64,000 bases of DNA from Escherichia coli (GTDB taxonomy: Bacteria; Pseudomonadota; Gammaproteobacteria; Enterobacterales; Enterobacteriaceae). The notes under the pieces were generated by a model. The model ran no database searches and was not told the DNA's origin. It saw only the letters and a list, made by a program, of their open reading frames with translations. The position numbers and the translations under genes are program-made. The stretch lies in NCBI RefSeq assembly GCF_003790525.1, contig NZ_CP033635.1, one strand, 5' to 3'. Positions 42,401 to 64,000 of the stretch are shown here, piece by piece (the stretch's first letter is position 1; each line of letters starts with the position of its first letter).

Positions 42401-42667
42401 TTACAGTTTATTCAGAATAAGGCATGCGGCCTGGTTTAATGCAATAAACTCCTGCCAGCTGTACTGAGACTGATAATTCAGTAAATACTGGTCTTCAACC
42501 CGGCAAATCTGTGGGCGTTTATCATAAATTGCACACAAATGAGAATCAGTCTGATAGTAACGGCAAATACCGTCACCACGATCCAGACATTGCGTTTCAC
42601 CCGCCCTGTTGACATGACGACAACAGGCCCCACACTGGTTACAGGGAAATGGAGGGTGTAATTTCAT
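42401..42667 (-). CDS. YkgJ-family cysteine-cluster (Zn/Fe-chelating, CxxCxxCC) protein
   Basis: 88 aa with the motif PCNQCGACC plus further Cys residues (CLDRGDGIC, CAIYDKRPQIC). Its ATG overlaps the stop of the upstream 523-aa gene by 4 nt. Confidence 0.65.
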   Translation of the reverse strand: MKLHPPFPCNQCGACCRHVNRAGETQCLDRGDGICRYYQTDSHLCAIYDKRPQICRVEDQYLLNYQSQYSWQEFIALNQAACLILNKL

Positions 42668-44235
42668 CGCTTATTTAACCAGTCACGAACAGAAGCCACA
42701 TTTCCTGACTCAAACGGCAACGCAATCCCTCGTCGGCGGACTTCTTCTCTCAGCAGAAGTCCGCGCTCTATCTCACTGTTTACGCTATCCAGATGAAGTG
42801 AAAAATGATTTAACTCGGCAGCATCAACAGAAAATTCCAGTGCAGTAAGTTCCACAAGATAGCGATCAAGTTCAGCATTGACTGCCTGAAAGTATTCCAG
42901 TGACCGCTGGAATTTGTCCTTAAATTTGTCCAGAAATGCCCATACCCGCTGCATAACCTCGCTATATTCGAGATAATAATTCATCACCAGCCCGAGAATA
43001 CCTGTCGTCAGCGCACCACAAAAGGCAGCAAGCTCTGAACCAAATGGGAAAATAAGGATCTGCGCCATCGCCTCATTTATCATCACCCCTCCGGCAACAG
43101 CCACACCTGCTGCTATCAGTTTAGTGACCGCTTTGGCTAACTGCCCCGGCGATAATCCCTCCGGATTAAATACCAGGACTTTAAAGGCCTGAACGAGATT
43201 GTTCCACATTTCCCTGATAAGCCGGACAATCATTCTTTCCGTTGTCAGGAATATATTTAACAGCGTTGTGGTAATACCTGACAGTATCCCTCCGATGACA
43301 CCATCTTTAAAGGCAATTAAAAAAGAACTGAATTTTTCCTGTACTCGTTCCTGGCAGGCACGTAATGCTGACGTTATTTCGGACAGGCATTTGCCGGCGC
43401 TGAATGAGTTCCGTTGCTGCCTGATAATATGCGGGATTCGTTCCCTCAGTTCGAACCAGATCTCGGCAAGAATAAGCCCCAACATCTGTCGCGTCCCCAT
43501 ACGAAAACCGGAATTAAGCGAAGCACTGGCGACAGCAGTAGCAAACTTACTACTCAGGTAATAGCTCTGATTAATCGTGGCCTCATATTTTTCCCGGGCA
43601 TATTTATCAGCCCTTTCCATACGCTCAGTATCTGCATCAGCTTTTTTTCTCAGACTTATCAGACGTTTCTTTTCCTTTTCTGTCAGCGTTGCCTGAGATT
43701 CAAGCTCTGCTATCTGCCTTAACGTATCTTCTCTGTTTTTCTGCAGCGTGCAAATAAACGCATCCATTGAGTCTGCTTTCTTTGATTTATTGAGCGACTC
43801 ATGAGTGAATGCCAGATTTGAAGCGTCATTTGCCAGTTCTGCACCATCCCGTTCAGCAAGAATTCTCCCCGGATCATCATGAATTTCTTTAGCGGAAATA
43901 ATATGATCCAGATTTTTTTTGTCGTCAGAAGCAAACACCTCGCCTGTATATGCATCAGTAAGAGTCCCTGCCTGATGCGCACGCTTTCCTTCCCGGTTCG
44001 TCGCGATATAGTTCTCATGGCTGTGGTAATGATGAGAATCATATTCGCCACGACCTTCATACCGCTGTCGCTCAGCCTCCGTGGCATAAATGCCATTACG
44101 CACATTATGGATAGTGTCAACATCACCACCCTTACGATCATTTAGCAACAGAAAATCCAGCCCGAATGATGTAACCAGGCTCTTCACCATGGTCTGATGT
44201 AACTCTTCTGTCCAGTCAAATTTTTCCACATTCAT
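42664..44235 (-). CDS. HNH-like nuclease domain fused to a coiled coil and a Gly/Ala-rich hydrophobic C-terminal region
   Basis: 523 aa. The N-terminal region contains GGDVDTIHNVR ... NLDHIISAKEIHDD ... ASNLAFTHESLNKSKK, which fits the D-H...N...N-K pattern of HNH nucleases (compare the Cas9 HNH DVDHIVPQSF...NKVLTRSDKNRGK). A coiled coil follows (aa about 160-230). Hydrophobic segments are GVIGGILSGITTTLLNIFL, LIAAGVAVAGGVMINEAMAQILIF and AAFCGALTTGILGLVMNYYL. Confidence 0.6.
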   Translation of the reverse strand: MNVEKFDWTEELHQTMVKSLVTSFGLDFLLLNDRKGGDVDTIHNVRNGIYATEAERQRYEGRGEYDSHHYHSHENYIATNREGKRAHQAGTLTDAYTGEVFASDDKKNLDHIISAKEIHDDPGRILAERDGAELANDASNLAFTHESLNKSKKADSMDAFICTLQKNREDTLRQIAELESQATLTEKEKKRLISLRKKADADTERMERADKYAREKYEATINQSYYLSSKFATAVASASLNSGFRMGTRQMLGLILAEIWFELRERIPHIIRQQRNSFSAGKCLSEITSALRACQERVQEKFSSFLIAFKDGVIGGILSGITTTLLNIFLTTERMIVRLIREMWNNLVQAFKVLVFNPEGLSPGQLAKAVTKLIAAGVAVAGGVMINEAMAQILIFPFGSELAAFCGALTTGILGLVMNYYLEYSEVMQRVWAFLDKFKDKFQRSLEYFQAVNAELDRYLVELTALEFSVDAAELNHFSLHLDSVNSEIERGLLLREEVRRRGIALPFESGNVASVRDWLNKR

Positions 44236-44281
44236 GTTATTTCACTTCTTGTAAAGCCGGGCTTTAACGCCCGGTAAATCA

Positions 44282-45361
44282 TTAACTCTGGGATGAAAAA
44301 TCATCAAATTTCACAACCGAACTGGCCAGTACATCATCCAGCTCATCCTTATTAATAACGTTCATTCCATTATCATCCGTTTCCATTTCAATAACGTTAT
44401 CTTTTATCACTGCCTCACCATTTTCCTGTTTCCGCGGTTTAAACAGTGGCGTTGTAATAATATCCGTCATAATAGCGGCCAGTGAATATCCATGGTCAAT
44501 AAGCACAATGACTTCATCTGATACACTGATATCCTGTTGTTCTGTAATAACAGAATGCATGGATTTAAGCGGCTCAAAATAGTGTTTAATAAATACAGCA
44601 TGCATTCTGTTCAGTGCAGCGAGAATTTCATCAACGTATTGATTAACTTTTGCAAAATGCTCCCGGGCCAGATTCATTTTCTTAACTGCCCGTGCAACAT
44701 CGCAGGCACACTGATGGGCATTTTCAAGAGCTTTCGTCGCATGTCTGTCGTAAGCCCAGCCCGCAATGGCAATCAACGGTGCAGCCACTGCGGTGCCTAA
44801 TACCATTGCGCCGCCGGCCATTCCCATGCCCCCTGCAGCCAGTGAGCCCCCACCAATTGCCGCCATCGTCGCGTTATAAGCCGCGGCACCAGAAAGCGCT
44901 GCAATGGGTGTACCTGTAGAAGCCGCAGCAAATGCCATCACTCCGCTATACACAGCAAAACCCGCAGCAGCCCCGGAAACTCCGGCAGCAACGACCGTAC
45001 TGAGATATTCTGTCGCTGAAATGGCCAGGTTCTGAATCTTATTGATGTTATGTTGCGGGACACTCAGTTTCAGGTCTTTATTGCCCTCTTTTTCCAGACG
45101 CGCCAGGAGCTCAGCAGCAATCCTGTCGAACTCACTGAAATCTTTACCAATCTCAAGCTCTTTATTTCCGAGCGTTGTTAATTTTGATGATGTCTGAGCT
45201 TCAGCCTGCTCAAATTTTTCTTTATGCTCCTCGTAACGCTCTTTTGCTTTTTCGAGGATATCCTCTGCTTCTGACTTTTTTTGATATCCATCGTAAGCTT
45301 TTTTTCCGCCGAATGCCGCAGCGCCGGCAGCCACACCCAAAATAATAAAAGGTAACGCCAT
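44282..45361 (-). CDS. glycine-zipper membrane protein, function unknown
   Basis: 359 aa. It has an N-terminal TM helix (MALPFIILGVAAGAAAFGG), a charged coiled coil, and then a roughly 95-aa Ala/Gly-rich hydrophobic block (VVAAGVSGAAAGFAVYSGVMAFAAASTG...GGGSLAAGGMGMAGGAMVLGTAVAAPLIAIAGWAY). The C-terminal part is a soluble acidic domain. Confidence 0.55.
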   Translation of the reverse strand: MALPFIILGVAAGAAAFGGKKAYDGYQKKSEAEDILEKAKERYEEHKEKFEQAEAQTSSKLTTLGNKELEIGKDFSEFDRIAAELLARLEKEGNKDLKLSVPQHNINKIQNLAISATEYLSTVVAAGVSGAAAGFAVYSGVMAFAAASTGTPIAALSGAAAYNATMAAIGGGSLAAGGMGMAGGAMVLGTAVAAPLIAIAGWAYDRHATKALENAHQCACDVARAVKKMNLAREHFAKVNQYVDEILAALNRMHAVFIKHYFEPLKSMHSVITEQQDISVSDEVIVLIDHGYSLAAIMTDIITTPLFKPRKQENGEAVIKDNVIEMETDDNGMNVINKDELDDVLASSVVKFDDFSSQS

Positions 45362-57450: not shown

Positions 57451-58025
57451 ATGACCAATTCAGCACACCAGCGACTGGATATGGCGGGAAATGGTGGCCC
57501 GGGGGTTACAGGCAGTGAAACCATCGTCAGGGATGCTGTTGCCAAATGGCGTAAAGGCTGGAACCCACCAGTTACTACTGCCGCCAGACTTCCTTCAGTG
57601 TCCCGGGTAAGCCGCTGGTTGATGCCCTGGATAATAATCAGGGGTGAAGAAAATTATGCTTCCCGATTTATTAGTCTGATGTGTGAAAAAGAACCGGCGC
57701 TGAAAATAGCGCAGCAACTAGTACTTGAGTTCTACCGTATTCTGAAAACCCCAAATAAATCAAATCTAAGCAGTTGGTTCACTCGAGTCCACGAAAACGG
57801 TTCAGCAGAACTTCGGCGCGTGGCTGCGGGGATGGAAGCTGATGCTGCGGCTATATGTGAGGCAACCAGCAGCCGCTGGAGTAACGGTGTTGTCGAAGGT
57901 CATGTAAATCGCCTGAAGATGCTGAAACATCTGATGTATGGTCGAGCCGGATTTGAACTACTTAGGCAGAGGGTAATGAGTCCACTGGCATGAAAATCTC
58001 CACCTAGGTTGCGGAAGAGCCACTT
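57451..58025 (+). pseudogene. ISL3-family transposase C-terminal fragment plus terminal inverted repeat
   Basis: The 180-aa ORF ends ...RWSNGVVEGHVNRLKMLKHLMYGRAGFELLRQRVM, the conserved ISL3 transposase tail. ggttgcggaagagcc (reverse complement GGCTCTTCCGCAACC) follows at about 58007-58021 and looks like an ISL3-type terminal repeat. The N-terminal two-thirds of the transposase are absent. Confidence 0.6.
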
Positions 58026-58292: not shown

Positions 58293-58601
58293 TTATCGAT
58301 CTATTACGCGATCATAATATTCGATGATTTGCAGTGCAACAGCAGCAATTTGTACTGCTTCCTCCCTACTGGTACCGGCTGCTTTACCACCAAAACGATC
58401 ATGGAGGACAGCCTGATGAAATTCTCCCACCTCTTCTCCGAGAATCGCTCCCCAGATAAAAGGATCTTGATTACGGTCTGCCCCCCATTTGGCATCCTGC
58501 CGTTGCATTTCCGCTAGCACGTCAGACAGGGCTTTAGTGTCTTGATGTTTACCTTTCATGTTTCCCTTACGAATCCGTGATTTTAAGTCCATCATTAACA
58601 T
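58293..58601 (-). CDS. small MazG-like (all-alpha NTP pyrophosphohydrolase) protein
   Basis: 102-aa ORF, or 88 aa from the internal MKGKHQD. It has the EExxE-type metal site in WGAILGEEVGEFHQAV and a second acidic helix REEAVQIAAVALQIIEYYD, typical of MazG/dimeric-dUTPase-like folds. Confidence 0.6.
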   Translation of the reverse strand: MLMMDLKSRIRKGNMKGKHQDTKALSDVLAEMQRQDAKWGADRNQDPFIWGAILGEEVGEFHQAVLHDRFGGKAAGTSREEAVQIAAVALQIIEYYDRVIDR

Positions 58602-58702: not shown

Positions 58703-59029
58703 TTGTTCATTACCTTTCAAAGCAAGAAGTTAAGGACTATTTGCGAGAGTATGCATGAGGCAAATGAGATCTTTGGTGACAAAGTGGCATCAAGACTACG
58801 CTCGCGACTTTCCGATCTTTCCGTGACAGACAACATATTACTGTTGCCCGTAGGTTCGCCGGAGGTCTGCTTTGAGGATGGGGAAGAGTGTATTACAATT
58901 ACCATTCTCGGTGATGTAAAAATGGGATTTGTCTGTGGGAATACAGTTCAGCCCAAAAATCAAGATAATACAATTAACTGGTCCCGAGTTAGCCGGATAC
59001 GGTTAGTGTTCATAGGTGACGTGAAATGA
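58703..59029 (+). CDS. HigB-like / plasmid-maintenance killer-type toxin (RelE superfamily)
   Basis: 108 aa with a TTG start. The N-terminus (M)FITFQSKKLRTICE resembles the F-x-x-KKL-x-x-C opening of HigB-type killer proteins. The stop overlaps the downstream gene by 4 nt. Confidence 0.5.
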   Translation: MFITFQSKKLRTICESMHEANEIFGDKVASRLRSRLSDLSVTDNILLLPVGSPEVCFEDGEECITITILGDVKMGFVCGNTVQPKNQDNTINWSRVSRIRLVFIGDVK

Positions 59030-60108
59030 TAGTTACGCAGGACTTCCAGCCTGACTGGGTATCTCCACCCGGTGATACAATTATAGATCTAATGGATGAA
59101 CATGGGCTTTCTGGTGAAGAACTGAGTAAGAGGATTGGATTGTCTCTTATCCGGGGTCAGCAACTTCTTGAAGGAAAAATCCGACTCAATGAGTCTCTGG
59201 CTTGTAAGCTTGAGGAGTTATTCAACGTATCGACAGACTTCTGGATCAAGCGCGAAGTCGCTTATCGCCAGCAAATTGGATACCTCGAGAAAGTGAATAA
59301 TGATTGGCTCGAATCATTGCCTGTACGTGATATGATGGAGTTTGGTTGGATCCCCAAAACTACAACTCGGGAAAGTAAATTCCAGCACTGCCTATCGTTT
59401 TTCGGAATAAATTCCGTCAATGATTTTTTTTATAAAATTCAGTCAGATGCTCCTTTGGTCGCTTTTCGTAAATCTCTTAATCTGGCAACCGAGCCTATGG
59501 CCGATTTGGTGTGGCTGACTAGGGCTGCACAACTTACCTCAAACCAAAACTGTGCTGTATGGGATAAAGAGGGGCTGATAGCATTGTTGCCAGAACTGCG
59601 CAAAGCTACAAATGAACCCGACATGAGGATTTTTATCCCTTACATTCGCGACCTTCTCGCCACTGCTGGAGTTTCTCTCGTTGTGTTGCCAACGCCAAAG
59701 GGATGTCGGGCAAGTGGTGCTACCTGCTTTTTTACACCAGATCGCGCAACCCTAGTCATGAGTTTCCGTTATCTGACCGATGACCATTTTTGGTTTACGC
59801 TGTTTCATGAGATTGGGCATCTCATCTTGCATGAAGCTGTCCGAGTTCGCGTAGAAGGTAAAGATAGTCTTTCGTCGGAAGAGGAAAAGGAAGCAGATAA
59901 ATTTGCCGTTGATGTTCTTATCCCAGAAGAATACCGGCAGCAACTTAGTCGCTATGGTGTCCGGCATTGGAAAGAGATCATCCGGTTAGCTAGGAAAATG
60001 GGGGTATCCAAAGGGATCGTACTGGGATATTTGCAGCATGAAGGTAATATACCTTTTTCTCACCTTAATCGGTTTAAAGTGAGATTCCGTAAAGAAGATA
60101 TCGTCTGA
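59026..60108 (+). CDS. XRE-type HTH fused to an ImmA/IrrE (M78, COG2856) zinc metallopeptidase
   Basis: 360 aa with an N-terminal HTH region (GDTIIDLMDEHGLSGEELSKRIGLSLIRGQQLLEGK). The C-terminal part has the HEXXH motif in WFTLFHEIGHLILHE. Confidence 0.7.
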   Translation: MIVTQDFQPDWVSPPGDTIIDLMDEHGLSGEELSKRIGLSLIRGQQLLEGKIRLNESLACKLEELFNVSTDFWIKREVAYRQQIGYLEKVNNDWLESLPVRDMMEFGWIPKTTTRESKFQHCLSFFGINSVNDFFYKIQSDAPLVAFRKSLNLATEPMADLVWLTRAAQLTSNQNCAVWDKEGLIALLPELRKATNEPDMRIFIPYIRDLLATAGVSLVVLPTPKGCRASGATCFFTPDRATLVMSFRYLTDDHFWFTLFHEIGHLILHEAVRVRVEGKDSLSSEEEKEADKFAVDVLIPEEYRQQLSRYGVRHWKEIIRLARKMGVSKGIVLGYLQHEGNIPFSHLNRFKVRFRKEDIV

Positions 60109-60110
60109 TA

Positions 60111-61055
60111 TCAGCCGCCGAAATAGACATAACGGTCAGGTGATTTCTGCCAGTTGCACAACGCATCTTCAATAACCTGCATTCTCAAGTAGGGTGCAGG
60201 AATAATTGCCGCAAGGTCAGCTAGTTTTTCATTCAATACGTCTATTGTGTCACCAGCAGTCCGGCTATTGCTGAAAAGTAGCCGGCTTCCTTGAAGGGGC
60301 CCGGTTGCTCCATTCAGAAAAGCATGACCCGGCTCTACATCCAGAAGTCCCGTTTTCTTGAGCATAGTTAGGTAATCAAATTTTGCGGTTCGTCCAAATG
60401 AGATCACGGCATTTAGCCCTGAATACAATAGTTCGAATAAAGATTCTGGTGAAGATGAAAAGCTCTTGGCCTCTGCAAACCTAGCCTCATGACTGTGTGT
60501 AGCACCAATGAATCCGATGTAAGAGCGAAAAACCGCAGGTATTGAACGACGAGAGTGATATTTCTTCGTTTCATATTTCCGATGGTTACCATATTGTCTT
60601 AGGCTACTGTTAGCTGTCAACTCATCAGAGACGCTGGCGAACCATTGTTCAAAAGCAGCAAAGTCATCAGTTATCGTATCCCATGTCCACGTTTGTGTAC
60701 CGAGTCCACTGTATATATCTCGACACAAAATCCAGCCGGTTTTGTTACTCTTGCCGAAATGTGTGGCAAGGAAAACCAGCCAGCAGGCTTCATCGTAATT
60801 GTTGTCACGAAGATAAAGGCAGGCAGCGCGGAGAGGATCAAAAACATCAGAATTCGGCTCTTTTCGTAACGGAGTCATATAATCGGTCCGTAATGCAAGA
60901 GTTTCCACATAGCGTATACGACGTATACTGTCGATAATCTGACAGGCTAAAACATCAAAGCAGGCAGGAGAACTTAGGCCATTTAGGTTGTGTTCATTGC
61001 GGCTAAAATTTTGCAAATTACTAACCAGCTGACTGATTTGATTATGTCTTTTCAT
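60111..61055 (-). CDS. hypothetical 314-aa protein translationally coupled to the TS-like gene (possible aGPT-pyrophosphorylase-like / HhH-glycosylase-fold protein; unverified)
   Basis: The ATG overlaps the TS-like stop (ATGA). No classical motif is certain. The segments GNHRKYETKKYHSRR, FGRTAKFDYLTMLKKTGLL and NGATGPLQG remind me of the family annotated as alpha-glutamyl/putrescinyl thymine pyrophosphorylase clade 3. This rests on memory only. Confidence 0.35.
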   Translation of the reverse strand: MKRHNQISQLVSNLQNFSRNEHNLNGLSSPACFDVLACQIIDSIRRIRYVETLALRTDYMTPLRKEPNSDVFDPLRAACLYLRDNNYDEACWLVFLATHFGKSNKTGWILCRDIYSGLGTQTWTWDTITDDFAAFEQWFASVSDELTANSSLRQYGNHRKYETKKYHSRRSIPAVFRSYIGFIGATHSHEARFAEAKSFSSSPESLFELLYSGLNAVISFGRTAKFDYLTMLKKTGLLDVEPGHAFLNGATGPLQGSRLLFSNSRTAGDTIDVLNEKLADLAAIIPAPYLRMQVIEDALCNWQKSPDRYVYFGG

Positions 61056-62032
61056 TGTAGTCTTCCTTCAAAAATAAACCGATATTCCTGATTTTTCATT
61101 GCAGCCAACTCTTGGAAGGCTAGTCCTTTGTGGTTGGGTGTATGTGAACGTAACAAAAAGTGGATTTTTAATATACGCAATAAATCCTTCCAGTAGTCAT
61201 TCAAGGAAGTAGTGTCAATATCAAATTCCTTATTCTCTCGAAGAGCTTTTTCTGCCTCAAGCAGGGGTAAGATATCATCTAAGGAATGCATTTCAGGCAT
61301 CGATCCCATGACTGGTAGGGTGCTCATGAACCCCTCTTTCTGAAGAGCCTTCACTTTTTCTAAATCATTTTTATAGAGATGTAGGCTGGATACAAAGTGA
61401 TGATAGTGACCCAATTCGCATCCTATCAAGCGGGCAACTAATTCCTGTAGCATCGTGAACGCAAATACATCATGAGGCAGCCCCATAAAGGCATCGTTAG
61501 AACGCATACAAACAAATAGATGCAGCTCTTCACATCTGACAATAAACTGCATAGATATTGTACAAGGAATATCTACGTATTCTCGCTGTTCAGTTTTTGA
61601 GGGCACCAAGTCTGAGGCATCGAAAAGCTGTATTACTGCACGTCTGGTAGGTTTTTTCTCCTGCAAAAGGTTGATAACATTTTTTAGCTGATTATATAAA
61701 CCACGCATATTAAACAACCGTGGCCCGTAACCACCATGTATTTTCCCATCTGACTCAGCGGATTCAGCGTAACGTGGTATGAAGTGTTTTATAAACTCAA
61801 GATCGTTCTGAGCTGAGAGATACCACAGAAATTCACCTAAGCAACTAATTAGTTTTCCTCGGGATTCTGTTCTACTTATTCTTCGGCGGGGGTCGGTAAG
61901 GACAAGATAGGCACCAAGAATCTCTAGAGTTGATCCTTTTGTAGGATCGTTACTGAGTCCATCCGCTAGGATAGCTTGATGAACATCGTTTATCAGATCG
62001 TCAACACACTCAGCCGTTACCAAAAGAGTCAT
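61052..62032 (-). CDS. thymidylate synthase superfamily protein (ThyA / dNMP hydroxymethylase-like)
   Basis: 326 aa. It aligns by eye to the E. coli ThyA core. [14 protein letters not shown] matches [26 protein letters not shown] matches LAPCHAFFQFYV, retaining the catalytic Cys. [27 protein letters not shown] matches [35 protein letters not shown] matches GDTHLYSN. The N- and C-termini are divergent. Confidence 0.75.
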   Translation of the reverse strand: [326 protein letters not shown]

Positions 62033-62199
62033 TTTCTACCTTTTCCTGTATGGTAGTAACTAATCATTACCACCTGTATGGCATATAGTCAATATAGTAT
62101 CAATATCAACATGGTTCACAGGGTAAGTAAGACTTGATCTTACCCAGCAATAGTGGACACGCGGCTAAGTGAGTAAACTCTCAGTCAGAGGTGACTCAC

Positions 62200-62498
62200 A
62201 TGACAAAAACAGTATCAACCAGTAAAAACCCCGTAAACAGCATTCGCCTGAATTTCTCAGTGAAGCCCTGAAACTTGCTGAACGCATCGGTGTTGCTGCC
62301 GCAGCCCGTGAACTCAGCCTGTATGAATCACAGCTCTATGCGTGGCGCAGCAAACTGCAGCAACAAATGAGTTCGTCAGAGCGTGAAAGTGAACTGGCCG
62401 CTGAAAATGCCTGCCTGAAGCGGCAACTGGCGGAGCAGGCAGAGGAACTGGCTATCCTCCAAAAGGCCGCGACATACTTTGCGAATCGTCTGAAATGA
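62200..62498 (+). pseudogene. insE: IS3 orfA (insE) inactivated by a 1-nt deletion in an A-run
   Basis: It reads ATG ACA AAA ACA GTA TCA ACC AGT AAA AAC CCC GTA AAC ... TGA, with a stop after 23 codons. K-12 IS3 has AGT AAA AAA CCC CGT AAA CAG (one more A). The ORF track lists no orfA-sized ORF of 60 aa or more here, and the element is 1 nt shorter than 1258 bp. Confidence 0.75.
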
Positions 62499-63361
62499 AG
62501 TATGTCTTTATTGAAAAACATCAGGCTGAGTTCAGCATCAAAGCAATGTGCCGCGTGCTCCGGGTGGCCCGCAGCGGCTGGTATACGTGGTGTCAGCGGC
62601 GGACAAGGATAAGCACGCGTCAGCAGTTCCGCCAACACTGCGACAGCGTTGTCCTCGCGGCTTTTACCCGGTCAAAACAGCGTTACGGTGCCCCACGCCT
62701 GACGGATGAACTGCGTGCTCAGGGTTACCCCTTTAACGTAAAAACCGTGGCGGCAAGCCTGCGCCGTCAGGGACTGAGGGCAAAGGCCTCCCGGAAGTTC
62801 AGCCCGGTCAGCTACCGCGCACACGGCCTGCCTGTGTCAGAAAATCTGTTGGAGCAGGATTTTTACGCCAGTGGCCCGAACCAGAAGTGGGCAGGAGACA
62901 TCACGTACTTACGTACAGATGAAGGCTGGCTGTATCTGGCAGTGGTCATTGACCTGTGGTCACGTGCCGTTATTGGCTGGTCAATGTCGCCACGCATGAC
63001 GGCGCAACTGGCCTGCGATGCCCTGCAGATGGCGCTGTGGCGGCGTAAGAGGCCCCGGAACGTTATCGTTCACACGGACCGTGGAGGCCAGTACTGTTCA
63101 GCAGATTATCAGGCGCAACTGAAGCGGCATAATCTGCGTGGAAGTATGAGCGCAAAAGGTTGCTGCTACGATAATGCCTGCGTGGAAAGCTTCTTTCATT
63201 CGCTGAAAGTGGAATGTATCCATGGAGAACACTTTATCAGCCGGGAAATAATGCGGGCAACGGTGTTTAATTATATCGAATGTGATTACAATCGGTGGCG
63301 GCGGCACAGTTGGTGTGGCGGCCTCAGTCCGGAACAATTTGAAAACAAGAACCTCGCTTAG
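62495..63361 (+). CDS. insF: IS3 transposase orfB (DDE/rve domain)
   Basis: 288 aa beginning [32 protein letters not shown]. It contains the motifs [16 protein letters not shown] and [11 protein letters not shown]. Confidence 0.93.
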
Positions 63362-63511: not shown

Positions 63512-64000
63512 ATGTACTGCAATGAATTAAAAGAATTTGCGCAAGAGCAGGAACAAAAACTTATCAGTGCGCTTGCTGATACCAGAGAGCACCCGTCCCC
63601 CGATGGTGAAACAAGAAGCCGGGATAATTATCAACGGGATTACGCGCGTATTCTGTATTCATCATCATTTCGCAGGCTGCAGGGAAAGATGCAACTTTTT
63701 GAAATTGATCCTGAAAAATTCAACAGAAACAGATTAACGCACAGTCTTGAGGTTGCTCAGATCGCCCGAAGTATCGCGTCAGACCTCAAACTGATTAACC
63801 CGGTGGTGGTTGAACTGGCAGCGCTGGCGCATGACATCGGAAATCCTCCTTTCGGTCATTCCGGTGAAAAACTGCTTAATGAACTGTCTGAAGAAATCGG
63901 CGGCTATGAAGGTAATGCACAGGCGCTACGTATCCTGAGAAAACTGGAGAAGAAATTTTCATACTGCAACGGATTAAATCTGACTCACCGTAGTTTACTT
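63512..64000 (+). CDS. Dgt-family dGTP/dNTP triphosphohydrolase (HD domain), 5' 163 codons; continues past the right edge
   Basis: This gene is not in the ORF track because it has no stop in the window. Manual translation from the ATG at 63512 (RBS AGGAAG) gives MYCNELKEFAQEQEQKLISALADTREHPSPDGETRSRDNYQRDYARILYSSSFRRLQGKMQLF...NRLTHSLEVAQIARSIA...AALAHDIGNPPFGHSGE...YEGNAQALRIL. These are the canonical dGTPase motifs (RD-x-RI-x-S-x-FRRL, RLTHSLEV, HD-GNPPFGH, EGNAQ). Confidence 0.85.
   Translation, partial: MYCNELKEFAQEQEQKLISALADTREHPSPDGETRSRDNYQRDYARILYSSSFRRLQGKMQLFEIDPEKFNRNRLTHSLEVAQIARSIASDLKLINPVVVELAALAHDIGNPPFGHSGEKLLNELSEEIGGYEGNAQALRILRKLEKKFSYCNGLNLTHRSLL

Follow-up and report, generated by a model that had tools for sequence, protein, structure and literature searches.

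The question raised by this locus is what a thymidylate-synthase (TS)-like enzyme, encoded directly upstream of a 314-aa partner protein, is doing within an island of an Escherichia coli genome. The window, by which we mean the whole 64,000-nucleotide stretch of contig NZ_CP033635.1 that was analysed, contains both open reading frames on the minus strand; both are real, since their family matches exclude chance ORFs. The original prediction described them as a candidate for an undescribed two-gene module for nucleotide or DNA base modification, with an unknown protein as the partner. We found instead that the TS gene and the partner gene (aGPT3) form the enzymatic half of a conserved, horizontally mobile four-gene bacterial cassette. 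The components and boundaries of the islet are listed below, and we hold the identities of the cassette components with high confidence.

57451..57993, plus strand: ISL3-family transposase fragment, left boundary of the islet (Pfam DDE_Tnp_ISL3; RefSeq "transposase, frameshifted, incomplete")
58293..58601, minus strand: MazG-like small protein, a 102-aa ORF, accessory (RefSeq "MazG-like family protein", with the RefSeq start at 58559 and 88 aa)
58703..59029, plus strand: P108, a core gene with a TTG start, 108 aa, possibly HigB/RelE-like (ORF search, clustering)
59026..60108, plus strand: HTH-M78, a core gene, HigA-type HTH fused to an ImmA/IrrE (M78) zinc peptidase (Pfam Peptidase_M78 and HTH_3; PADLOC)
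60106..60113, no strand: tail-to-tail junction of HTH-M78 and aGPT3 (HTH-M78 ends at 60108; the aGPT3 stop occupies 60111-60113)
60111..61055, minus strand: aGPT3, a clade 3 aGPT-Pplase/AADT family protein of 314 aa with an HhH glycosylase-like fold
61052..62032, minus strand: TS-fold enzyme of 326 aa, predicted dCMP 5-hydroxymethylase (Pfam PF00303, MilA relatedness, specificity residues)
62180..63361, plus strand: IS3-family element with a frameshifted transposase, right boundary of the islet (RefSeq annotation)

The architecture of this cassette is compact. On the coding strand, the TGA stop of the TS gene (61052-61054) overlaps the ATG of aGPT3 (61053-61055) as ATGA, the stop of P108 overlaps the start of HTH-M78, and the MazG-like gene is divergent from P108. 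HTH-M78 and aGPT3 converge with their stop codons 2 nt apart, and the promoter/terminator scan detected no terminator-like site at their junction. Across loci, the stop codons of these two genes are typically 2 nt apart (median), with no more than 10 nt between them in 59/71 and an overlap in 25/71. Among 80 related genome loci, HTH-M78 was found in 79, P108 in 76 (by clustering) and the TS gene in 74. The unit is larger than a two-gene module, with HTH-M78 and P108, on the convergent side, equalling the TS gene in conservation. The core set was seen again in 22 loci on viral contigs (IMG/VR), where the query was confined to this set, X and MazG; HTH-M78 is present in 21 of the 22.

Optional additions to the cassette include DUF4031, MazG and an unannotated protein, X, which has the alpha/beta fold of a uracil-DNA glycosylase (UDG) and is absent from this window. 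Gene X lies between the TS and aGPT3 genes in 33/80 loci (41%), so direct translational coupling of the two enzymes is not universal; this qualifies the stoichiometric partnership drawn from the ATGA overlap, and ATGA coupling was rejected as a universal feature. The MazG-like gene, found in 7/80 genome loci and 4/22 IMG/VR loci, is restricted to enterobacterial versions, and its label comes from RefSeq and an EExGE motif recognized by eye, with no Pfam, NCBIfam, PADLOC or PDB support for the 102-aa ORF. A search of both promoter regions for shared operators or inverted repeats gave nothing above chance, the promoter/terminator scan likewise yielded no significant promoter signal, and the Rfam scan of 57-64 kb returned no RNA family.

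The TS protein, which has thousands of homologues, matches Thymidylat_synt (Pfam PF00303, E=5e-25) and, as first described, retains the TS catalytic core with the Pro-Cys nucleophile (P156-C157) and the RS-x-D-x-F-x-G-x-P segment (R177-S-N-D-A-F-M-G-L-P186). PADLOC and NCBIfam assigned no family to this protein or to aGPT3. Its closest relative in the PDB is MilA (5b6d/5jnh, E=1.6e-41 over residues 26-304), with which it shares a C-terminal helical extension, and matches to ThyA reach 1e-18 or weaker. RefSeq labels the protein "thymidylate synthase", which would favor a duplicated housekeeping enzyme that happens to lie beside an unrelated gene. This explanation has next to no probability: Asp replaces both Asn177 and Leu143 of ThyA, the protein scores no more than 81 bits where ThyA equivalogs need at least 327 (NCBIfam), it is far closer to MilA, and it keeps its synteny with three other genes from one phylum to another. 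The explanation was rejected on residues and synteny.

The specificity residues are highly conserved among 69 orthologues. The nucleophile C157, aligned with ThyA C146, is kept in 69/69, and D188, likewise found in 69/69, lies at the ThyA-N177 position, where Asp marks specificity for cytosine; the controls M6 gp58, DS-4 TS and ThyA all carry Asn at this position (the key positions of the E. coli ThyA control sequence agree with PMC5175136 and PMC13326640). Because of this invariant Asp, the original framing around thymidine and hydroxymethyluracil (hmU) does not fit. The 5-hmdU DNA kinase that is obligatory in the phage pathway is missing. S178 at the MilA-A176 position (69/69) and R130 at the MilA-K133' position (65/69) give the deoxyribose signature according to a rule, supported by mutagenesis, that distinguishes Ser/Arg enzymes from the ribose-preferring MilA with Ala176 and Lys133 (PMC5175136); a ribo-CMP specificity of the MilA/BcmA type was ruled out on these residues. 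A bulky hydrophobic residue at ThyA L143 excludes water and leads to a methyl product, whereas an acidic residue admits water and leads to a hydroxymethyl product; MilA has Asp at both the N177 and the L143 positions (PMC13326640). In the TS protein the L143 position is D154, acidic in 60/69 orthologues. A 5-hydroxy-dCMP (5hodCMP) synthase was likewise ruled out, since its marker is Asn at the ThyA-D169 position (PMC13326640) and here D180 is kept in 69/69. The protein thus has every one of the signature residues of a deoxycytidylate 5-hydroxymethylase, which is its predicted activity, although hydroxymethylase and methylase cannot be told apart with proof from sequence.

The suggested likeness of the partner to the aGPT-pyrophosphorylase family proved correct. 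The segments on which it was based (GNHRKYE, FGRTAKFDYLTML and NGATGP) are all found in aGPT3, which matches aGPT-Pplase3 (PF18746, E=4.8e-90, profile positions 4-278 of 279) and ADDT (PF18724, E=9e-59, profile positions 1-232 of 232). It has thousands of homologues, the close ones of which bear the NCBI name "aGPT pyrophosphorylase clade 3". The HhH glycosylase-like fold is nearest to solved AADT structures, with PaMx11 gp46 as the best structural match, and a search of the PDB with the clade 3 profile found no sequence-level relative. Identity to HhH-GPD glycosylases (AlkA, EndoIII, MutY, OGG) and to DUF2419/QNG1 is 5-13%. Glu296 and Cys300 form a Glu-x3-Cys dyad that aligns with the Glu and Cys of M6 gp51 by hhalign and in three MAFFT modes, and the motif is present in 79/79 aGPT3 orthologues; in clade 2 enzymes this dyad attacks C6 of a 5-(phospho)hydroxymethyl pyrimidine to yield an exocyclic C5 methylene. 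Asp73 and Gly221 of the HhH hairpin are also kept, while Thr223 and an invariant Asp227 replace the Trp and Lys that bind glycine in clade 2 (W146 and K150 of PUGT, whose roles in the co-substrate pocket are described in PMC11472151). A tblastn search of 50,697 deposited phage genomes gave zero hits. By sequence and structure comparison, aGPT3 represents a clade within the amino-acid:DNA-transferase (aGPT-Pplase) family that is confined to bacteria.

The pair that the 3' end of aGPT3 abuts, a small protein and a HigA-HTH-M78 peptidase, is PD-lambda-2A/B-like. HTH-M78 matches the PADLOC model PD-Lambda-2_B (PDLC03982, E=8.7e-30; residues 15-341 against profile positions 60-378 of 402) and has an intact HEIGH motif, with HExxH in 72/72 full-length copies. 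P108, which is not in the RefSeq feature table, is possibly HigB/RelE-like, though the likeness is weak: 2/43 members of its family match PF05015 (HigB) at about 2e-3, and its best PDB match is GraT (6f8s, E=0.48). The PD-Lambda-2_A model was matched by 0/43 members of the P108 family and the PD-Lambda-2_C model by no cassette protein.

We found the cassette in 336 species genomes and, within E. coli, in 4.7% of the complete genomes. The 265 copies in E. coli all lie on the chromosome; the cassette is also carried by 10 of 72,556 plasmids and by the 22 IMG/VR contigs. GC content is 40-46% inside the cassette, 52-54% in the IS3 element and approximately 51% in the flanks. Type I restriction-modification (R-M), dGTPase and PDC families occur in the same island, the defence-type dGTPase gene lying at the end of the window after the IS3 element (PADLOC, E=2e-109), and in Bradyrhizobium the cassette adjoins Shedu. 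In the PADLOC scan of the nearest flanking ORFs, counted for the most frequent families, a minority match known defence families, so the association with defence islands is moderate. According to DefensePredictor (2026), the TS protein (WP_000174035.1) is a predicted defence gene with log-odds of 7.6; it appears only in the prediction table for 3,000 genomes and not in the screen of that study, which highlights aGPT-Pplase systems as unvalidated predictions. Given this listing, the Pfam family and the NCBI clade 3 name, the cassette is not undescribed and its partner protein is not an unknown. We consider a role in anti-phage defence somewhat more probable than not.

Our preferred explanation, to which we give a probability of about 50%, is that a mobile four-gene cassette, likely anti-phage, carries out hydroxymethyl-cytosine chemistry under the control of infection. 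The PD-lambda-2-like pair would sense infection and control the enzymes, or may itself be toxic. The hydroxymethylase would convert dCMP to 5-hm-dCMP, with substrate perhaps fed by the MazG-like pyrophosphatase in enterobacteria. The clade 3 enzyme would then perform kinase-independent C5-methylene chemistry on hydroxymethyl-cytosine (hmC), probably once it is in DNA, with the UDG-fold protein acting alongside it in many species. Replicating phage DNA, and possibly host DNA, would be corrupted in this way and the infection would abort. None of the 80 genome loci has a nucleotide kinase that could make 5-hm-dCMP usable by a polymerase. The DNA-level step therefore depends on kinases of the host or the phage, or on hmC DNA that is already there. 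It is a tentative proposal that a kinase-independent, cytosine-directed AADT branch serves as an immune effector, often joined by a new UDG-fold protein in placing a new hmC-derived adduct or lesion in replicating DNA under a PD-lambda-2-like switch, and the specific DNA-level mechanism is slightly more doubtful still.

The same two enzymes could act on the nucleotide pool and leave DNA untouched. In that case dCMP, released from dCTP by MazG, would be drained to 5-hm-dCMP and the HhH partner would take the free nucleotide as its substrate, cleaving it as the N-glycosidases MilB and BcmB do or derivatising it, resulting in depletion of deoxycytidine nucleotides or in a toxic or signalling pyrimidine. 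We regard this as unlikely. The closest relatives of aGPT3, in structure and in sequence, act on DNA by base flipping, its conserved Glu-Cys dyad belongs to C5 transferase chemistry and not to glycosidic hydrolysis, the optional X has the fold of a DNA glycosylase, and just 7/80 loci have MazG. In most bacteria, dCMP is not known as a main-line precursor of dCTP. Less probable again is that an hmC-derived base in host DNA marks self, with HTH-M78/P108 as an addiction or regulatory module. Iyer and colleagues reportedly proposed in 2013 that such systems in prokaryotes could provide epigenetic marks; this cassette does adjoin R-M genes, and AADT relatives modify DNA post-replicatively (PMC8989533). 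However, the 80 loci have no conserved nuclease or reader and no kinase to bring hm-dCMP into dCTP pools, and the toxin-antitoxin (TA)-like regulator suggests conditional and not constitutive activity. Formed constitutively, hmC would also be exposed to restriction of the McrBC type, a common feature of E. coli.

Two further explanations are highly improbable. The relationship to MilA, its closest solved homologue even in the C-terminal helical extension, could indicate that the TS protein helps to make a secondary metabolite or antimetabolite derived from 5-hydroxymethylcytosine, in the manner of mildiomycin or bacimethrin, but the ribose residues of MilA/BcmA have been exchanged for the Ser and Arg noted above, no further biosynthetic genes are conserved, and the surroundings are defence islands and IS elements. 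Similarly, a mobile element might hypermodify its own DNA, as phages do, to escape restriction; it is chiefly from phage counter-defence that these enzyme families are known, and the cassette does occur on viral contigs and plasmids. This is opposed by the empty search of phage genomes, the rarity on plasmids, the exclusively chromosomal location in E. coli and the lack of kinase and nucleotide-kinase genes, on which phage pathways depend.

Phages are known to employ pyrimidine hydroxymethylases and AADT transferases in counter-defence, and here these enzymes are found in bacterial chromosomes, as a toolkit re-specified for cytosine that dispenses with the activating kinase and is joined to a switch of the abortive-infection type. 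If the cassette is defensive, it would represent a new effector principle, in which enzymes corrupt either the deoxycytidine pool or the cytosines in DNA. If the immune-effector proposal is true, the cassette would mirror the DNA hypermodification of phages, with phage as the target and with new nucleobase chemistry involved. The system might also yield a modified base that is new, as well as a DNA-modifying enzyme acting directly on 5-hmC, which would be of interest to developers of epigenomic tools. The predictions that follow are that dCMP is the substrate, that C157, E296, C300 and the HExxH of the peptidase are catalytic, and that the four-gene unit is required.

Among known systems, the cassette resembles the thymidine hypermodification pathways of phages (M6 gp58/gp54-55/gp51, PaMx11 gp46 and ViI gp247), as both combine a TS-fold hydroxymethylase with an HhH enzyme of the AADT family, and the phage clade 2 AADT and aGPT3 have in common the Glu-x3-Cys dyad, Asp73 and the HhH hairpin. 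HhH-GPD glycosylases, on the other hand, use Asp or Lys, whereas aGPT3 keeps the Glu and Cys of AADT. The phage hydroxymethylase is uracil-type and the cassette TS cytosine-type (Asp188). The phage pathway also needs a 5-hmdU DNA kinase, whereas the cassette is without the 5-HMUDK kinase or HMUDK_hel and no kinase cluster occurs among the neighbours in the 80 genome loci; a Pfam control on M6 gp54 and gp55 recovered their kinase (HMUDK P-loop) and helical domains. A further difference from the phage pathway is the attached TA-like HTH-M78 module. MilA, the CMP 5-hydroxymethylase of mildiomycin biosynthesis, and the cassette TS have in common Asp at the N177 and L143 positions together with the catalytic Cys, Glu, His and Tyr, while the dCMP hydroxymethylase of phage T4 (gp42) shows the same Ser/Arg deoxy signature as S178 and R130. 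Unlike these two enzymes, the cassette TS is located neither in an antibiotic gene cluster nor in a phage.

Two defence systems complete the comparison. Experiments have established PD-lambda-2 as an abortive-infection system (PMC9519451) consisting of a HigB-like A, a HigA-HTH-ImmA/IrrE B and a P4-antitoxin-like C, in which B is toxic, A neutralises it and C is required (Vassallo et al. 2022). HTH-M78 is similar to B over nearly its full length, and the small upstream gene overlaps its start as A does with B, but the cassette has a convergent two-enzyme operon in place of the C component. DS-4, a validated E. coli defence system (DefensePredictor 2026), comprises a TS, a dNMP-kinase-like protein, HMUDK_hel, a TIR protein and a hypothetical protein. 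Its TS is uracil-type (Asn) and 29% identical to the cassette TS, and it relies on an HMUDK_hel kinase branch and a TIR effector, without AADT or HTH-M78. Nevertheless, DS-4 and the cassette are alike in joining a TS-fold hydroxymethylase with an acidic water-gate residue to proteins of the phage hypermodification toolkit.

The two ORFs of the original prediction, encoding a thymidylate synthase (TS)-like enzyme and its partner, were both found on the minus strand with every motif quoted for them, and an ATGA is common to the stop codon of the former and the start codon of the latter. Neither is due to chance. The real unit exceeds this pair and is a four-gene cassette, listed here with one nearby ORF:

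61052..62032, minus strand: TS-like enzyme, 326 aa
60111..61055, minus strand: partner (aGPT3, the clade 3 enzyme), 314 aa
59026..60108, plus strand: HTH-peptidase (HTH-M78)
58703-59029, plus strand: P108, 108 aa, TTG start, without RefSeq/PGAP annotation in E. coli W2-5
58293-58601, minus strand: MazG-like ORF, known by its RefSeq label "MazG-like family protein" and a by-eye EEVGE motif only

The 326-aa protein matched Pfam Thymidylat_synt (E=5e-25). Since the whole of its partner matched aGPT-Pplase3 (E=4.8e-90), with a further match to the amino-acid:DNA transferase family ADDT (E=9e-59), the likeness to aGPT-pyrophosphorylases suggested in the original prediction is correct.

Among 80 genome loci surveyed, the HTH-M78 gene lies tail-to-tail after the partner in 79, a P108-type gene (~110 aa) precedes HTH-M78 in 76, across phyla, and the TS gene is upstream of the partner in 74; nearly all misses are contig ends. 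The same pattern was seen in 22 IMG/VR loci. The gap between the partner and HTH-M78 stop codons is 10 nt or less in 59/71 loci (median 2 nt), and in 25/71 the stops overlap, by 4, 11 or at least 20 nt. At the window junction (60106-60113) the convergent stops are 2 nt apart, and a scan detected no terminator-like site between them; convergent transcription would then be obligatory, with read-through apparently part of the architecture. No conserved kinase of any kind was found among the neighbours in the 80 loci. An optional gene of ~100 aa, DUF4031, is present in 13 of them (L062:6839-7144, L073:6773-7135, L077:2781-3092, L081:6850-7152 and 9 more), between the TS gene and X, an optional UDG-fold protein absent from the window, wherever position was examined. 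Among the 80, MazG-like genes were confined to the seven enterobacterial loci; the window has one as well, and searches of this ORF against Pfam, NCBIfam, PADLOC and PDB sequences gave no match.

Of 5,426 complete E. coli genomes, 256 carry the 3.9-kb block on the chromosome, 251 of them with at least 99% identity, and strain W2-5 is 100% identical to the right half of the window. Clade 3 is bacterial: it is carried by 336/185,579 species-representative genomes spread over many phyla, with 10 matches among 72,556 plasmids, 22 loci among 2.9 million IMG/VR contigs and no tblastn match in 50,697 phage genomes. Decayed copies also occur. A ~1.9-kb insertion splits the aGPT3 gene of Enterobacter hormaechei CP169086 (L010), the Chryseolinea serpens locus (L054) has no TS gene and only a shortened form of X, and some E. 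coli have truncated 186-aa TS proteins (P0153, P0158). One viral contig, IMGVR_UViG_3300025711_000239 (118.6 kb; L090 and L091), carries the whole cassette twice, near each end, which could reflect a true duplication, a terminally redundant contig or a circular element whose assembly wrapped around.

The best-supported reading of the TS-like enzyme is a predicted deoxycytidylate 5-hydroxymethylase. Its closest solved relative is MilA (E=1.6e-41, residues 26-304, taking in the MilA C-terminal helical extension), the CMP 5-hydroxymethylase of mildiomycin biosynthesis; the best solved ThyA matched at 1e-18 and E. coli ThyA at 1.5e-11. Published mutagenesis and structures have shown that cytosine is selected by Asp replacing ThyA-Asn177, and 2'-deoxyribose by Ser at the MilA-Ala176 position together with Arg at Lys133'; changing both in MilA (A176S/K133R) switches it from CMP to dCMP (PMC5175136). 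Hydroxymethylases are recognised by an acidic residue in place of ThyA-Leu143, and 5-hydroxy-dCMP synthases by Asn in place of ThyA-Asp169 (PMC13326640). The window enzyme has C157, D188, S178 and D180 (each 69/69 orthologues), R130 (65/69) and D154 (acidic in 60/69), residue signatures from which a 5-hydroxymethyl product would be expected. As controls, phage M6 gp58, the TS of DS-4 (an E. coli defence system validated in the DefensePredictor study) and E. coli ThyA have the expected Asn at the specificity position, and E. coli ThyA has Leu at position 143.

Other assignments were rejected: thymidylate synthase on a score of 81 bits, far under every NCBIfam ThyA equivalog cut-off (327 or more), with Asp188 instead of Asn and D154 instead of Leu; dUMP hydroxymethylase on Asp188, not Asn, at the specificity position; a ribo-CMP enzyme on the deoxy signature of S178 and R130; and 5hoC synthase on D180, not Asn, at the ThyA-Asp169 position.

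For the partner, clade 2 enzymes offer a guide. They need one Cys and a neighbouring Glu; the Cys adds to C6, the phosphate is expelled, and glycine or serine then joins the exocyclic C5 methylene (PMC8989533). E243 and C247 are the essential pair of gp46, the amino-acid:DNA transferase (AADT; PUGT) of phage PaMx11, which acts on a target base flipped out of DNA (PMC11472151). Clade 3 E296-x3-C300 aligned to the Glu and Cys of M6 gp51 by hhalign and three MAFFT modes. D73, Q293, W302 and the HhH hairpin Gly221 had aligned counterparts too, and all 79 of 79 orthologues carry the E[DE]xxCxW motif. Thr223 and invariant Asp227 stand where the glycine-binding Trp146 and Lys150 sit, implying that the co-substrate differs.

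HTH-M78 resembles component B of PD-lambda-2 (PADLOC PD-Lambda-2_B, E=8.7e-30), and its HExxH is intact in 72/72 copies. PD-lambda-2 is a validated abortive-infection system in which a toxic HigA-HTH-peptidase (B) is neutralised by an upstream HigB-like A, and defence requires a third component (PMC9519451). P108 appears only marginally HigB-like: 2/43 family members matched PF05015 (~2e-3), none of the 43 matched PD-Lambda-2_A, and the top PDB match was GraT (E=0.48). Its TTG start is supported because conserved F5, R11 and C14 precede the first internal Met.

The cassette is AT-rich (GC 40-46% versus ~51% in the flanks) and bordered by a fragment of ISL3 and by an IS3 element with a frameshift. 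The surrounding defence island holds a type I R-M system, an AriA/NsnB/PDC-M55A-like ATPase, PDC-M09A-like and PDC-M40B-like genes and a defence dGTPase:

42664-45361, minus strand: 523-aa "ATP--cob(I)alamin adenosyltransferase", a RefSeq name that is probably misleading, and 359-aa hypothetical protein (PADLOC PDC-M40B, 1e-42; PDC-M09A, 4e-22)
48094-50612, minus strand: 540-aa AAA ATPase (PADLOC PDC-M55A, NsnB, HEC-03B, AriA) and 298-aa protein with no matches
63512-64000, running past the window end, plus strand: start of dGTPase-family gene (W2-5 full protein versus PADLOC defence dGTPase, E=2e-109)

The ATPase pair, which may be a two-gene system of PARIS or Nhi type, lies directly downstream of hsdS inside the type I R-M locus. 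Just one IS3 element separates the dGTPase, a nucleotide-depletion system, from the cassette. Elsewhere, the Bradyrhizobium cassette adjoins a Shedu-type gene. The ORFs that flank ~45 loci most closely include some R-M, MADS, CBASS, Lamassu or other M78 genes; because most are none of these, the association with defence islands is only moderate.

From these component identities and residue signatures we infer a possible mechanism. The PD-lambda-2-like pair of HTH-M78 and P108 would gate the cassette, or may itself be toxic. The hydroxymethylase would make 5-hm-dCMP, for which MazG may supply dCMP from dCTP in enterobacteria, and the Cys and Glu of the clade 3 enzyme would act on hydroxymethyl-cytosine by a C5-methylene chemistry that needs no prior phosphorylation, so that replicating DNA would be corrupted and infection aborted. 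We favour this DNA-level step since DNA base-flipping is shared by the nearest relatives of clade 3 and by the UDG-fold accessory protein; the chief weakness of the model is the missing kinase. The main rival is action on nucleotides alone: the enzymes could drain dCMP, work as a glycosidase in the manner of MilB/BcmB, or yield a nucleotide that is toxic or serves as a signal. Marking of self-DNA is less likely; after it come, in falling order of likelihood, antimetabolite biosynthesis, anti-restriction by a mobile element and a housekeeping duplicate.

The families and context of the original prediction stand, but the base is predicted to be cytosine rather than hmU, the unit was incomplete, and "undescribed" does not hold: Pfam and NCBI already name the family, and the 3,000-genome table of DefensePredictor (Science 2026) includes WP_000174035.1, the very TS protein of the window, with a log-odds of 7.6 and the label "Predicted novel defense gene". 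The pair is yet biochemically and genetically uncharacterised. That study highlighted aGPT-Pplase-containing systems as interesting predictions, not experimentally validated, and WP_000174035.1 is absent from its screened-system table. With its specific predictions, the cassette is a good experimental target. DS-4, validated in the same paper, is its uracil counterpart, with a dUMP-type hydroxymethylase (29% identity to the window TS), and has in addition a 5-hmdU-DNA-kinase pair (dNMP-kinase-like and HMUDK_hel) and a TIR protein. The cassette, as read from its sequences, combines known kinds: a predicted cytosine-directed, kinase-less bacterial branch of AADT hypermodification and a PD-lambda-2-like module.
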